Part shown: piece after piece, positions 27,675 to 32,637 of the stretch
How the letters are laid out: each line of letters starts with the position of its first letter
Numbering within the stretch: position 1 is the first letter of the stretch
Assembly (NCBI GenBank): GCA_038255465.1
Contig: JBBSLJ010000005.1
Coordinates: 1 to 56,621 of the forward strand
Direction of reading: 5' to 3'
Source of the DNA: Candidatus Saccharimonadales bacterium
GTDB taxonomy: Bacteria; Patescibacteriota; Saccharimonadia; Saccharimonadales; JACDFO01
DNA length: 56,621 bases
Notes under the pieces: model-generated
Databases searched by the model: none
What the model saw: the letters and a program-made list of their open reading frames with translations, nothing else
What the model was told of the DNA's origin: nothing
Made by a program: the position numbers and the translations under genes

Positions 27675-28949
27675 TTATGATGAGAAGGACCTAAGCCGCA
27701 GCAACGTCTTTTCAGTTAAAATGCGGGAAACGACATCCTGTCGATTTTCAGGCTTATCCAACTCTGCTTGCATCGTGGCGTCCTGGTACTGGCCTTTTAG
27801 AATCTGGATTCGTATTTCTAGTTCTTCAGGAGTTACAGACAAATTCTCGGCTTCGGCTACGACGCTTAAGACCAATCCCATTTTTACACGTTGTTCAGCA
27901 GCCTCGCGCTTTTGTTCACGATGCTGGTCTGGTGTAACACCCTCTTCTTTAAGGTGCTCCTCCCAGGTTTGGTTTCGATAAACTAAGTTCTGGCGCTCTT
28001 CGTTCTCAATGCGGTCTATTTGCTCCTGTATCAAGACTTCAGGTATTGCAACTGTACTAACGGCAGCAAGCTCTTTAACCAATTCCGTCTCGTAATCACG
28101 GCCGGCTTGGTTTTCTCGCTCTAGTTTTAGCTGCTTTTTAATATCTGCCTTGAGTTCACCTACGGTTTTAAATGGTCCGACTTTAACCGCAAATTCATCA
28201 TCTACTTTAGGCTCAACAATTTCCTGAACCTTAGTCACGTTAACGGTGAATGTCACCTTTTTACTGGCGAGTGCTTTCACCTGGTAGTCTTTGGGAAACG
28301 TTACATCAAAAGTTTTTTCATCACCTGCAGCAAGACCAATTAAGGCTGGTTCAAAGCCAGGAATAAACGTATTGCTGCCCAATACTAATGGGTAGTCTTT
28401 GCCGTCAGCACCTTTAACCGGCTGGCTCTTAGCGTCGACACCCGTAAAATCTATCCAGATCTGGTCACCGTCTTTGGCCGCCCGATCAACATCCTTTTTT
28501 TCAGCCATACGGGTTTGCAGTGATTTTATAACGCCCTTGACGTCGTCAGCGGTTATTTCTATTTTTTGCTGAACAGCTTTAAGTTTTTTGTAATCACCGA
28601 GTTTGATTTCGCCGACTACTTCAACTTTGACAGTAAATTCTAATGTAGTGAATGGAACAAACTTTTTGATTTCTACCTCTGGGCGTCCGACAGGTCGTAA
28701 ATTATTTTCCTGTACTGCCTGAGCATACATCTGTGATAATGCTTCATCTAAAAATTCAGACTGTAGTGCCGATTGGTCGACGTTTTTTTCTACCATCGCT
28801 AGTGGAACTTTGCCCGCTCGAAAGCCAGCAACTTTTACTTTATTCTGAAAATGCCGTAAGACATGTTGCTTTAGCGGACCTAGATCTGCCTCCTGCGCAA
28901 CGATTGTTATTGTCGCGTTGGTGTTTTCGAGTATCTTTTTAACTTGCAT
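27675..28949 (-). CDS. tig: trigger factor
   Basis: VKVAGFRAGKVP; FKBP domain IDFTG...LGSNTFIPGFE...FPKDY. Confidence 0.97.
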   Translation of the reverse strand: MQVKKILENTNATITIVAQEADLGPLKQHVLRHFQNKVKVAGFRAGKVPLAMVEKNVDQSALQSEFLDEALSQMYAQAVQENNLRPVGRPEVEIKKFVPFTTLEFTVKVEVVGEIKLGDYKKLKAVQQKIEITADDVKGVIKSLQTRMAEKKDVDRAAKDGDQIWIDFTGVDAKSQPVKGADGKDYPLVLGSNTFIPGFEPALIGLAAGDEKTFDVTFPKDYQVKALASKKVTFTVNVTKVQEIVEPKVDDEFAVKVGPFKTVGELKADIKKQLKLERENQAGRDYETELVKELAAVSTVAIPEVLIQEQIDRIENEERQNLVYRNQTWEEHLKEEGVTPDQHREQKREAAEQRVKMGLVLSVVAEAENLSVTPEELEIRIQILKGQYQDATMQAELDKPENRQDVVSRILTEKTLLRLRSFSS

Positions 28950-28963
28950 AAGGCGTTATTCTA

Positions 28964-29416
28964 TCAGATTTTCAACAATATTACCAATACCAAACAAGCG
29001 CTTGCAAACCACGCCACTTCGACAACACCGCCGATTGGCCTTTGAAACCACTGTATCCACGTATGGAACTTTACTAAAAAGTTTGATGGCAGTATATCTT
29101 CTTCGGCACGACGCGCGCGTAAAAACTTTGGAATCCACATAAAGTCCGGGCTAGTTGCTATAAATGCACACGCAATCGCTATCCACGCCCCATTTCCGTT
29201 TGCGCGATATAGCACCACTACAAGCAAAAAGCAAAGCAGGGCATCGGCTCCTAATCCAAGCATATATCGTGTTGACCCAAGGTTTTCTTTTCTACTGCCA
29301 TAATGTGGCAGTGCGTCTAAAACAAAATGGGAAGCAAACGCCAAAGGTATGGCCGAAGGGTGCTGCACGACACTTCCTAGTATCGCTCCAGTGAGCGCAT
29401 GATTTATTGCACGCAC
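28964..29416 (-). CDS. putative membrane-bound metal-dependent hydrolase
   Basis: NHALTG...SHFVLDALPH...PD...H pattern with TM helices; GTG start overlaps the hisS stop. Confidence 0.65.
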   Translation of the reverse strand: MRAINHALTGAILGSVVQHPSAIPLAFASHFVLDALPHYGSRKENLGSTRYMLGLGADALLCFLLVVVLYRANGNGAWIAIACAFIATSPDFMWIPKFLRARRAEEDILPSNFLVKFHTWIQWFQRPIGGVVEVAWFASACLVLVILLKI

Positions 29417-30723
29417 TACTTGTTACGGTAATCTTTTAGTATGCTGACAGTACGTTGAACACTGTGGCGTTCTTCTTCACCGGTATGCAGATCCTTTAGC
29501 ACCAATTGCTCGTCCTCGAGCTCACGCTCACCTATAAAAAGTACAAACTGAATATCCTTTTTAGCGGCACTTTTAAGCTGTTTATCGGGCTTACGGCCCG
29601 ACATATCAACTGACAATTTGATTCCCATTTCACGTAGATCCTGGATCATGTTTTGTGCTTGTAAGTACACGTCGCCGACAAGAATCAGACAGGCATCTGC
29701 CTCGGGCCTTAAGATAGGCTGTAGGTTATGTGTTTCCAGAAAATTCTGAAGCGTGACGTCACCCATGCCGAAGCCAACAGTTGGGACCGGCTCTACACCG
29801 AACAGGCCAACTAAACCATTGTAACGGCCGCCGCCGAACATGGAGCGATTATTCTCGGGGTTGTTATCGAAAACTTCAAAAACTATATCCGTATAGTAAT
29901 CAAACCCGCGCATTAGTGTTGGGTCAAAAACAACATTGGAAATTTTGGATTCTTTAAGCAGCGTCAGCAATGTCTTAAGCTCAAGTACTGACTCGTGATT
30001 TTTTAACTCTTCAGCTATATCATCCAGTGATTTCAATTTCAAAAATGCAAATAAACGACCCGCATTACCTGCCTCGCGTTGGCTTGGGCTAAATAGCGCC
30101 TCCGCTTGGGCGGCAAACGCCGCAGGGTCCATCTTGTGCATGCGGTCTATAAGCCGTATAAGCGTCTGGGCCTGTGTGTCATCCTCGCCCAACACATCTT
30201 TAAGCAATGTGTTGATTAGCTTGCGGCTATTAAGTTTAATGGAGTACATGTCCCGCTTGGCGCCGTAAGCCCGCATAATTGCATCAGCAACCTGAATAAT
30301 TTCGTGATCGGCTTCTATGCCGGCAATACCAAATAAATCCACATTGAGCTGCCAAAACTCGCGCAACCGTCCGCGCTGTGGCCGTTCGTATCTCCATAAG
30401 TTTGGAATCGAGTACCAGCGTACCGGGTAGGCCAGCTCTTGCCGTTTACCAGCCACCATACGGCTTACACTTGGCGTCATTTCAGTTCTAATAGTTACGC
30501 TGCGATCTCCGCGGTCAGTAAACGTATACGTTTGCTCGTTAACGATCTCATCTGAAGTTTTGCTTGCAAACAACTCGGTTGGCTCTAAGATTGGTGCGTC
30601 ATACTCTTCGTAGCCAAAACGCTCACATACTTGCCGCATAACGCCAAACATGTACTTTTGCAGGCGTTTATCTTCAGGATAAAAATCCCGCGCACCTTTA
30701 TATGGTTGTGTAGAAAGTGCCAT
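29416..30723 (-). CDS. hisS: histidine--tRNA ligase
   Basis: YKGARDF, IRTEMTPS, RYERPQRGRLREFWQ, RGFDYYT, GGGRY, GFGMG; GGAGG SD. Confidence 0.98.
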   Translation of the reverse strand: MALSTQPYKGARDFYPEDKRLQKYMFGVMRQVCERFGYEEYDAPILEPTELFASKTSDEIVNEQTYTFTDRGDRSVTIRTEMTPSVSRMVAGKRQELAYPVRWYSIPNLWRYERPQRGRLREFWQLNVDLFGIAGIEADHEIIQVADAIMRAYGAKRDMYSIKLNSRKLINTLLKDVLGEDDTQAQTLIRLIDRMHKMDPAAFAAQAEALFSPSQREAGNAGRLFAFLKLKSLDDIAEELKNHESVLELKTLLTLLKESKISNVVFDPTLMRGFDYYTDIVFEVFDNNPENNRSMFGGGRYNGLVGLFGVEPVPTVGFGMGDVTLQNFLETHNLQPILRPEADACLILVGDVYLQAQNMIQDLREMGIKLSVDMSGRKPDKQLKSAAKKDIQFVLFIGERELEDEQLVLKDLHTGEEERHSVQRTVSILKDYRNK

Positions 30724-30735
30724 AGTTGACCTCCA

Positions 30736-31647
30736 TTATAGCTTATCAATCGTAAGCTTGTTATTCTTAACCGTTATTATTAGATGTTCCCCGATTGGAA
30801 GCGGTAATGATGCCGCCTTATAACCCCTTGGAAATTCATACAAAATAGGTATGTTAGCTAAATAATCTCTCTTTGTTACTGACTGCTCAAATTCTTTTTC
30901 GTTTAACATATATGTTTCTGGAAAACTACCTATTAACAACCCGGTGATGTTTTCTTTTGCTCCAGGCAACAGCATAATCGAGTCAAGATTTCGTATAAAA
31001 TCCTGCCAAATTCTGTTTTTGGAAGTTATACAATCTTCACCTTCAAGTAGAAGAATGTAAGGTTCATTAAATTGTGGACAAAACTTGGTACCTTGCAATA
31101 AGTCAAAACTGTAGTTATTGCCACCCCATATTTTTCCTGTCATTTTGCCGGGTCGATAGACCTTAAATGAAATCTGATTATAGAGTCGACTCAGCTCTTG
31201 GTAATTTGATTTGTAAACAGCCTTGAGTGAATTAACGTACAGTTCAAGGAATTGCGGGTTTTTAATTCAGTTTCGTAACATCGGCCCCATTACGCCGCGC
31301 ATCATACCAAAAGCGGGTAATGCATTTACCAGAACCGTATTATCGGAATATCCTACAAAAATCTTGCGTTCATCAAGTTCAAGTGCGGGAATAAACTCTA
31401 AAAGTTCAATTGCATTAAAACCACCATCCCAGGCTATAACAATGTCAGCGTTCTGGGACGCCCGCTTTAGAGACTGTAAACGATCCGTTATTGACCGAGA
31501 ATCAAATATGTCATTTGCCCTAATATCGCCATAAATGCCGAGTTCCATATAGTTGCCTACTGTACGAGCTAACTGCTCAATCTCCACCATATCTTGCTGT
31601 GTTGCGCCAAGGCTCGTAATGCACACACCGACTTTAAGCTTGCTCAT
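30736..31647 (-). pseudogene. S66 family LD-carboxypeptidase / MccF-like peptidase interrupted by one in-frame TGA
   Basis: GGFNAIELL, IFVGYSDNT, GPML, LLEGED, PLPIG. I read the frame by hand from 31647 to 30736: it is continuous except for TGA at 31267-31269. Confidence 0.8.
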
Positions 31648-32479
31648 TCCTACCTATCCTTTCCCCAATCCAACTATCTATGTTTCCACAGGTAAGGTCA
31701 GTAATATCACTTAAATCAACTGCGAATTCTGGTACTCGATACTTATCATCTCCGATAGCCGGGTACTCGTCACGAGGCTTCCACTTAATCACGAGCGGCT
31801 CAACGCCTAGTGCTTCTTTGGTTGCCCAAAAACCTAAGCGTGCTGGCGTAAAATCGGGGAACGCATCAAAATCACAAAAAAGCACCGCCCTAGCTGCATA
31901 CAAACACATAAGTCTCGGGTAGTAATATGCCGCTTTAGAACCCGTTCGCCACCCATTTTCTAAAGCCTGTTCAAGATACCAGTTACTGATATCAAAGACA
32001 TTACTGTCTGTCGCTTGATTTCTAGCAGCTACTACGTCACATAGCGATTGCCAGTATTTCTGAAGCGTTACACCGTAGTTAGTGACAATACTACCGATTT
32101 CGGGCGCTTGTTTGGCCGTGGTAATTTTTTGCTTTACTATCTGCCCCTTCGGCAAAGCAATACGCGGACAAGCCATATTACTTTTTTTAGCATTTGAAGT
32201 CGTAAACTCGTCTTTTGCGTATGTAACGGTCCAAGGCCGCAAGCCTAGTTCATTTGACCTGGAGGCATAATCCAAATCTCCCACCGTTGGTCTGGCAAGA
32301 TATTCAGCTCTAACTGACGGCACCACATCACCATCTAGTGCAAACGCACCGGCTACTAGCTGGTCCGCTAAATAGTTTTTAAGCTCTTTTTGCAAAGAGG
32401 CATCAACACGACGATTGCCCATAATTTCAGCGGCATCATCGGCAGATACATAGTTAATTTCATTCATTATTTTCTCCAA
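31634..32479 (-). CDS. uncharacterised protein (281 aa; alternative start 32467)
   Basis: Long ORF, first gene after the attenuator; overlaps the S66 gene start by 14 nt. Confidence 0.8.
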   Translation of the reverse strand: MEKIMNEINYVSADDAAEIMGNRRVDASLQKELKNYLADQLVAGAFALDGDVVPSVRAEYLARPTVGDLDYASRSNELGLRPWTVTYAKDEFTTSNAKKSNMACPRIALPKGQIVKQKITTAKQAPEIGSIVTNYGVTLQKYWQSLCDVVAARNQATDSNVFDISNWYLEQALENGWRTGSKAAYYYPRLMCLYAARAVLFCDFDAFPDFTPARLGFWATKEALGVEPLVIKWKPRDEYPAIGDDKYRVPEFAVDLSDITDLTCGNIDSWIGERIGRNEQA

Positions 32480-32495
32480 AATGTTGTTAGTACAT

Positions 32496-32523
32496 AAAAA
32501 AACGCCGGAGCATGTCCGGCGTT
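32496..32523 (-). terminator. intrinsic terminator within a 5' leader (attenuator)
   Basis: AACGCCGGA-CATGC-TCCGGCGTT-TTTTT, in the sense orientation between the promoter and the first CDS. Confidence 0.85.
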
Positions 32524-32545: not shown

Positions 32546-32602
32546 CTAACCGACGAGCTCCGGCAAAATATGCAGATGGGGGTTAATTTGACTAATATAC
32601 AT
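32546..32602 (-). CDS. putative leaderless leader peptide MYISQINPHLHILPELVG
   Basis: ATG is the 7th nt after a perfect TATAAT. The ORF contains GCCGGAGC (32557-32564), complementary to the terminator 3' arm. Confidence 0.7.
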   Translation of the reverse strand: MYISQINPHLHILPELVG

Positions 32603-32608
32603 AATTAT

Positions 32609-32637
32609 ATTATACTACACTGATTATTTGTTGTCAA
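32609..32637 (-). promoter_or_regulatory. perfect-consensus sigma70 promoter
   Basis: TTGACA-N17-TATAAT. Confidence 0.9.

Follow-up and report, generated by a model that had tools for sequence, protein, structure and literature searches.

Saccharibacteria are ultra-small, host-dependent epibionts without amino-acid synthesis, and how they acquire amino acids from their hosts is largely unknown. Here, we focus on an operon in a stretch of 56,621 nucleotides (nt) from Candidatus Saccharimonadales bacterium (assembly GCA_038255465.1, contig JBBSLJ010000005.1, positions 1 to 56,621), which we refer to as the window. On its minus strand, the gene of an orphan protein family, which we call U281, is followed in the same direction by a gene for a serine peptidase of the S66 family, by hisS, by a gene for a 150-amino-acid (aa) protein (p150) and by tig. 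A preliminary description of this DNA had proposed that U281, the peptidase and hisS form a module for making, modifying or detoxifying an aminoacyl-nucleotide, or else that an unrelated cassette had landed in front of hisS. Comparison with related genomes revealed a conserved histidine-sensing operon whose cargo switches between lineages, and which offers a testable handle on histidine acquisition in these organisms. The regulatory membership of U281 and the S66 peptidase in this operon is well supported; what the two proteins do is a matter of weighing several readings.

Organization of the operon

The U281 gene (31634..32467, minus strand, as are all features below) encodes a protein without a single histidine. 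It had been described as 281 aa long, and an open reading frame (ORF) of that length, starting at TTG 32479, is indeed present. However, this TTG overlaps the Shine-Dalgarno site, while the ATG at 32467 agrees with the N-termini of the homologs and with database record P0001, and therefore a start at ATG 32467, giving 277 aa, is more likely. The stop codon of U281 (31634-31636) is found inside the start region of the S66 gene (30736..31647, with its ATG at 31645-31647), creating a 14-nt overlap. The stop codon of the S66 gene (30736-30738) is in turn followed by 12 nt and the ATG of hisS at 30723, which is served by a GGAGG Shine-Dalgarno site. The product of hisS (29416..30723) is a histidine--tRNA ligase (HisRS) of 435 aa which matches TIGR00442 with 359.7 bits against a cut-off of 286.75. 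The tight coupling of the three co-directional genes, overlap and gap included, is thus as first described.

A histidine-codon leader in front of U281

The control region of the operon begins with a perfect promoter (TTGACA-17-TATAAT, 12 of 12 positions in the promoter scan) at 32609..32637. Within a few bases of the -10 box, a nearly leaderless mini-ORF of 18 codons opens downstream (32546..32602), encoding MYISQINPHLHILPELVG before its stop codon and containing two histidine codons, both CAT, at 32576-32578 and 32570-32572. It is directly followed by an intrinsic terminator (32494..32523) made of a 9-base-pair stem (32501-32523) with six G-C pairs and a T run. The 3' segment of the leader, GCCGGAGC, is a copy of the 5' arm of this terminator, and the fold of the region has a z-score of -4.0. 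A scan of the control region against Rfam matched no family, including T-box and His_leader, and the known RNA families were set aside for this element.

From the end of the leader, a degenerate pattern was built which matches the window at 32546-32578. It gave one match in each of 27 of the 301 genomes of the order, and the reversed control gave none. Across lineages, changes in the end of the leader go together with changes in the terminator arm, giving four sequence classes, GCCGGAG, CCTCGA/CCCGA, GCCAG and AGCCAGATGGA, as judged by eye rather than by the score of a covariance model. Such a covarying repeat is the signature of an antiterminator. With a short ORF containing His codons immediately before an intrinsic terminator, and with an alternative pairing backed by this covariation, the "attenuated promoter" of the preliminary description is, on comparative sequence grounds, a histidine-codon leader-peptide attenuator. 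The earlier remark that hisS has no convincing promoter of its own also stands: two promoter-like sites with 10 of 12 positions are found inside the operon (31177-31204 and 30735-30764), and the whole region contains 8 such sites, fewer than the mean of 9.7 after shuffling.

These elements suggest how the operon would be controlled. When charged tRNA-His is scarce, a ribosome would stall at the His codons of the leader, and the leader 3' segment, left unoccupied, could base-pair with the terminator's 3' arm. Transcription would then proceed into U281, S66, hisS, p150 and tig. The parts needed for these steps (a sigma-70-type promoter, a leader with two His codons, a terminator and the copy of its arm) appear well supported by the comparative evidence, whereas we infer the stalling and read-through that would depend on tRNA-His charging. 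Enterobacterial hisL (RF00514) and other attenuators have in common with this region the short ORF with His codons, the intrinsic terminator and the competing pairing between the leader end and a terminator arm. Unlike hisL, the leader found here has no match in Rfam, contains only 2-4 His codons and is nearly leaderless. Moreover, the operon under its control encodes an aminoacyl-tRNA synthetase (aaRS) and cargo that is exchanged between lineages, and the phylum does not make histidine de novo.

Linkage of U281 and S66 across genomes

A search with the single U281 sequence found the protein in 8 of the 301 order genomes, and a hidden Markov model of the family added three (G100, G165 and G211); S66 peptidases are present in 22 of the 301. 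The preliminary description could have been overturned if homologs of U281 rarely lay near S66 or synthetase genes. The opposite was found: an S66 gene directly follows U281 in every locus of the order with downstream sequence, and hisS comes next in all lineages but one genus (g159), with an AstE/AspA-like gene placed between S66 and hisS in G296. All 13 distinct U281 loci with upstream sequence have a His-codon leader and a terminator. This constant succession speaks for U281 and S66 as a functional module that has been conserved in connection with histidine and HisRS.

The exceptional genus is informative in its own right. In both of its genomes, G214 and G230, U281 and S66 lie away from hisS and behind a gene for a 109-aa protein of the TrpR family (PF01371, HisR-like). 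The tail of this gene (L019 6673-7002 in G230; L020 7719-8048 in G214) ends in SQHHVHMSPVGAE, followed by the stop codon and then by a terminator, so that it seems to act as the His-sensing leader for U281 and S66. The hisS gene of the two genomes directly follows a tRNA-Leu gene and has no leader; the His-sensing element therefore stays with the pair rather than with hisS. The published regulons of HisR (YerC, TrpR family) in Firmicutes and Actinobacteria comprise genes for histidine biosynthesis and uptake, with no peptidase and no U281-like gene among them (PMC9413887). In common with these systems, a TrpR-family gene directly precedes U281-S66; a difference is that the gene's own tail bears the regulatory His codons here.

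No such leader precedes the S66 genes that stand apart from U281. The U281-linked S66 peptidases of the 'SDN/EGED' type group together as a single clade (100/100 support), while the other linked copies belong to the general S66 clade. The two trees disagree at G164, in which U281 groups with the copies linked to the general clade and S66 is of the 'SDN/EGED' type. Partners have therefore been exchanged with the pairing kept. Outside the order U281 is rare: in a set of 400 genomes of the phylum it turned up in 4, and the next gene there encodes a HisKA sensor kinase or, in G585, an M28 peptidase. In G585 the U281-M28 pair is preceded by a promoter, by an ORF of 28 codons that includes none for His (MENINRPTWFILILGLFIRSSFVLGDNI and a stop codon) and by a terminator-like hairpin (L089 6830-7055), which may be a different attenuator. 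No HIT or GNAT gene is linked to the pair in any related locus, and no mcc-type genes lie beside it; the GNAT gene of the window has no counterpart in the relatives, so that the linkage to HIT or GNAT genes which the preliminary description had suggested looking for was not found.

A separate arrangement was seen in G226, where a second full HisRS gene, a gene for a HisRS/HisZ-like paralog and an S66 gene lie in a row on contig 8 (L037 4767-8620), with a mini-ORF encoding MFLTLFNHHTNAL before its stop codon upstream of S66. This second HisRS scores 374 bits with TIGR00442 and is 27-29% identical to that of the window; the ordinary hisS of G226 is on another contig.

U281, an orphan protein family

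Among 1.84 billion representative proteins, members of the U281 family were found in 39 clusters, and a profile search of a set of 5.8 billion proteins added nothing to it. Neither U281 nor its family matched Pfam, NCBIfam, PHROGs, PADLOC or the sequences of the PDB, and 33 members compared one by one with Pfam gave no match either. An AlphaFold model built from 33 sequences is confident (mean predicted local distance difference test score 94.2, predicted template modelling score 0.90) and has alternating strands and helices, as in a Rossmann-like alpha/beta domain. In the structural comparison proposed in the preliminary description, Foldseek found no significant match for this model (best E-values of 0.11 against the PDB and 0.02 against viral models). 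The weak top matches are all nucleotide-binding HUP/Rossmann-like proteins (TyrRS, TtuA, PPAT, PanC and cytidylyltransferases) with a template modelling (TM) score of about 0.3. From the model, this likeness to the HUP type may be taken only as a hint: no structural or profile match is significant, and none of the signature motifs HIGH/KMSKS, SGGxDS or (H/T)xGH was found. Those which contain histidine are in any case impossible in the window U281, because the protein has no histidine.

In the family alignment N96, D163 and Y186 are invariant and R23, K99, T133 and Y187 nearly so. The motifs which had been picked out from the single sequence fall on the conserved columns N96, K99, D163, W167, Y168, Y186 and Y187. 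The family is acidic, with a median isoelectric point of 5.1. Three candidate identities were considered and rejected. U281 is not expected to add G-1 to tRNA-His, as the tRNA-His gene encodes G-1 opposite C73 and U281 is acidic; it is not related to a 238-aa protein found before an AstE/AspA-like gene in the same position of other operons (hhalign probability 0.5%); and neither anti-phage defence nor a phage origin is indicated, with no match for U281 in PADLOC or PHROGs. U281 is thus an orphan family without a detectable fold relative, and it gains a physiological context here through its operon.

The S66 peptidase gene and its apparent decay

The second gene had been called an MccF-like peptidase. 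Its N-terminal and C-terminal S66 domains are clear, with scores for PF02016 of 42.3 bits (cut-off 25) and for PF17676 of 46.4 bits (cut-off 23.7), both taken on a translation in which TGA is read through as Trp. However, the gene is not one open frame: an in-frame TGA at 31267..31269 divides it into ORFs of 126 and 135 aa. The closest homologs have Trp in this position (LWNWVKNP in L001, LSNWIKTP in L007 and LANWVKTP in G025). An alternative genetic code with TGA as Trp or Gly was rejected, since TGA terminates 6 of the 47 long ORFs of the window and the tRNA-Trp set of the genome consists of CCA only, with no suppressor tRNA. This codon is therefore a nonsense codon, arising either from a fresh TGG-to-TGA change or from an assembly error.

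The catalytic triad is incomplete as well. The Ser nucleophile (GYSD, codon 31345-31347) and the Glu (EGED) are kept, but the His of the 'GH' motif is replaced by Tyr (TAT, 30820..30822). This 'RGY' variant is common to the window, G242 and G025, while the catalytic His is retained in the solved S66 structures and in 19 of the 22 aligned S66 sequences. The variant arose once, in the ancestor of these three copies (91/97 support). Two of the three are disrupted: that of the window by the TGA and that of G025 by a break after about residue 40. In G025 the two parts are split across contig ends (L010 on contig 151 and L038 on contig 23) with unrelated sequence on both sides, pointing to the insertion of a repeat or mobile element. 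Neither the leader nor U281 nor S66 is present in the sister species G018. From the disrupted copies and this absence, the lineage of the window appears to be losing the U281-S66 module, with U281 still intact. The catalytic His would have been lost earlier, in common with the two other genomes, and the nonsense codon would be newer. Another reading is that the TGA is an error and that the enzyme works with Tyr in this position. In G046, a single-contig genome of 0.69 Mb, hisS lies in three frames and S66 in fragments with stops (L024 6412-8436), from either an error-prone assembly or real decay.

Histidine depletion of the cargo

Leader-linked U281 has no histidine in 12 of 14 lineages, that of the window included, and a single one in the other 2. 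Five U281 homologs from outside the order have 5-12. The linked S66 peptidases of the close clade likewise contain one histidine, the catalytic residue, and the 'RGY' copies of G242 and G025 none at all, compared with 3-12 in unlinked S66. Other proteins encoded between the leader and hisS in related genomes are also free of histidine (HisG-like, SLOG, HAD and PRT-like proteins). For the genome as a whole the mean histidine content is 2.1%; of 247 ORFs comparable in length, 6 are without any.

Such depletion would be expected from selection on proteins that are needed when His-tRNA is scarce: purged of histidine, U281 and S66 could be produced while His-tRNA limits translation. Its restriction to leader-linked copies speaks against the idea that the two genes are simply carried along. 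The option of an unrelated cassette in front of hisS is accordingly weakened, as both proteins are depleted only behind a His leader and as the pair in G214 and G230 keeps an attenuator without hisS. The operon provides a natural example of the depletion of a cognate amino acid in starvation-induced proteins, with the homologs outside the regulon as an internal control.

A variable slot between the leader and hisS

The place occupied by U281 and S66 in the window is a slot whose content varies among the 27 genomes with the leader. In 8 cases it is empty. Otherwise it holds a short HisG or a HisG-HisE fusion; HisD; HisI; a protein of SLOG cluster 4 together with a HAD hydrolase or a PRT-like protein; the 238-aa protein with an AstE/AspA-like deacylase; or U281 with S66. 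The slot gathers genes of a partial pathway and of hydrolases under histidine control. HisA and HisF are absent from all 19 tested genomes, while all 14 control genomes score, and HisG, HisD and HisI are absent from the genome of the window (G000). By these gene contents, the tested genomes are without de novo histidine synthesis. The same absences led us to reject a role for U281 or S66 in replacing a missing step of the pathway. Of the genomes with cargo, G239, G024 and G124 (L073, L074 and L075) have a short HisG-like gene with HisD and/or HisI behind a His leader and no HisA or HisF, and in G151 (L076 1153-2585) and G135 (L077 1204-2642) the 238-aa protein is Cys-rich with 0-1 His and precedes the AstE/AspA-like deacylase.

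What U281 and S66 might do

We favour, at a probability of roughly 0.45, the reading in which U281 and S66 are the conserved two-gene cargo of a histidine-starvation regulon of Saccharimonadales and supply histidine by scavenging. While the place of the pair in the regulon is well supported, the scavenging chemistry is what we infer. The S66 serine carboxypeptidase would cut the terminal amide bond of a histidine-containing conjugate or peptide derived from the host, and a neighbouring step on the same small molecule would fall to U281, a soluble, acidic, Rossmann-like alpha/beta protein in which Asn96, Asp163 and Tyr186 are invariant. Scavenging is favoured because other cargo of the slot, with its his-pathway genes and its HAD and AstE/AspA-like hydrolases, concerns histidine supply, because the partners of U281 come from three families of amide hydrolases (S66, M28 and AstE/AspA-like), because the genome cannot make histidine, and because none of the relatives has a linked gene for GNAT, HIT, MccB or an exporter.

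Several points weigh against this reading. Characterised S66 enzymes cleave the meso-diaminopimelate-D-alanine (mDAP-D-Ala) bond in murein peptides or the Asp-phosphoramidate in microcin C, and nothing links S66 chemistry to histidine. As U281 has neither a recognisable catalytic motif nor a significant structural relative, even calling it an enzyme goes beyond what its sequence offers. The S66 partner in the window is probably non-functional, the leader of G296 has only one His codon, and in other Patescibacteria U281 is coupled to the HisKA sensor kinase, not to a hydrolase. Finally, a His attenuator and His-depleted proteins would also be expected of a defence against an inhibitor of HisRS.

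Such a defence is the explanation closest to the preliminary description. Here a non-hydrolysable mimic of histidyl-adenylate would open the attenuator, and the cell would respond with more HisRS and with an MccF-like S66 that cleaves the amide of the aminoacyl-nucleotide, U281 binding or modifying the nucleotide part. The attenuator would sense the charging of tRNA-His, not histidine, so that inhibition of HisRS would open it, and proteins free of histidine would also be useful under a HisRS block. Among solved structures, the best matches of S66 are to the MccF-like proteins of Bacillus anthracis (E = 1.6e-17), followed by Escherichia coli MccF at 1.3e-7 and the murein LD-carboxypeptidases at 1.7e-7 to 5e-7. 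Extra aaRS copies often mark antibiotic resistance, and in G226 the second HisRS and the HisRS/HisZ-like paralog come directly before another S66. The weak structural matches of U281 are all to nucleotide-binding proteins; however, none of them is significant (E of at least 0.02, TM about 0.3).

With E. coli MccF and B. anthracis BA_5613 the S66 of the window shares the two-domain S66 fold, the Ser in G-x-S-D and the Glu. It differs in the Tyr at the position of the catalytic His, in the in-frame TGA and in being about 30 aa shorter than MccF-type chains. The missing residues fall in the inter-domain region which houses the adenine-stacking Trp186 of E. coli MccF; this region does not align, and the window S66 is about 17 residues shorter there than the B. 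anthracis chain. MccF counters a toxin directed against aspartyl-tRNA synthetase, whereas the S66 gene studied here is under a His-codon attenuator and linked to hisS. No mcc-like cluster surrounds it, its neighbours being U281, hisS, p150, tig, an 89-aa ORF and a GNAT gene, and GNAT, HIT, MccB-like and exporter genes are all missing from the related loci. The remaining cargo of the slot consists of enzymes of the histidine pathway. HisRS and histidyl compounds go unmentioned in a 2021 review of natural Trojan-horse aaRS inhibitors (PMC8323819). What survives of the aminoacyl-nucleotide module is a conserved module tied to histidine and HisRS; the nucleotide chemistry finds no specific support, and we regard the defence of HisRS as quite unlikely.

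An improbable account, too, is that the pair takes part in housekeeping murein-peptide recycling, as an LdcA-type LD-carboxypeptidase with a partner in a permissive slot, and has no link to histidine. The LdcA model (NF008424) is the sole NCBIfam match of S66, which is of the same family and of similar length (about 300 aa), but the score of 48.5 bits is far from the cut-off of 378. The slot does vary, with unrelated genes in different lineages; U281 (8 of 301) and S66 (22 of 301) are patchy, both being absent from the sister species G018, and several copies are decaying. However, the strong His depletion affects both proteins and only in leader-linked copies, and S66 genes unlinked to U281 have no leader and a normal His content. 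In contrast to LdcA, the U281-linked copies with nearly no histidine form their own clade (100/100) in a histidine-regulated operon. Where hisS lies elsewhere, a His-codon attenuator and a hisR-like gene have stayed with the pair.

Least probable is that U281 is no enzyme and acts as a small-molecule-binding adaptor or regulator of the downstream product (S66, M28 peptidase or HisKA sensor kinase): it is translationally coupled to three unrelated types of partner (by 14 nt to S66 here and likewise to the HisKA gene in L080), has few invariant residues and no catalytic motif that could be recognised, and is still whole in the window and in G025, where S66 is broken, but a compact Rossmann-like fold of 280 aa with invariant polar residues is more typical of an enzyme, and U281 has neither a DNA-binding domain nor a known sensor domain.

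Next to the scavenging reading stands a bolder proposal that we hold to be doubtful. U281 would be the founder of a new enzyme fold and, together with a His-free S66, would provide a route to obtain histidine or to protect HisRS when charged tRNA-His falls. On this view, the change from His to Tyr in the active site of one S66 clade would mark the completion of a selection that clears all histidine from proteins induced by starvation, and not a loss of function.

The downstream end of the operon and neighbouring genes

The operon had been delimited at 29416..32479, with three genes. These three stand, but the end at 29416 probably does not. The start of p150 (28964..29416, an ORF call) overlaps the stop codon of hisS by 1 nt, and tig (trigger factor, 27675..28949, an ORF and family call) begins 14 nt further on with no terminator between them; therefore the transcription unit probably extends through both, with tig as its last gene. 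The other neighbours in the window are a divergent 89-aa ORF and the GNAT gene. The p150 protein, which is without a family match, is conserved and is encoded directly 3' of hisS in many relatives. Its hydrophobic N-terminal stretch suggests that it may be located at the membrane.

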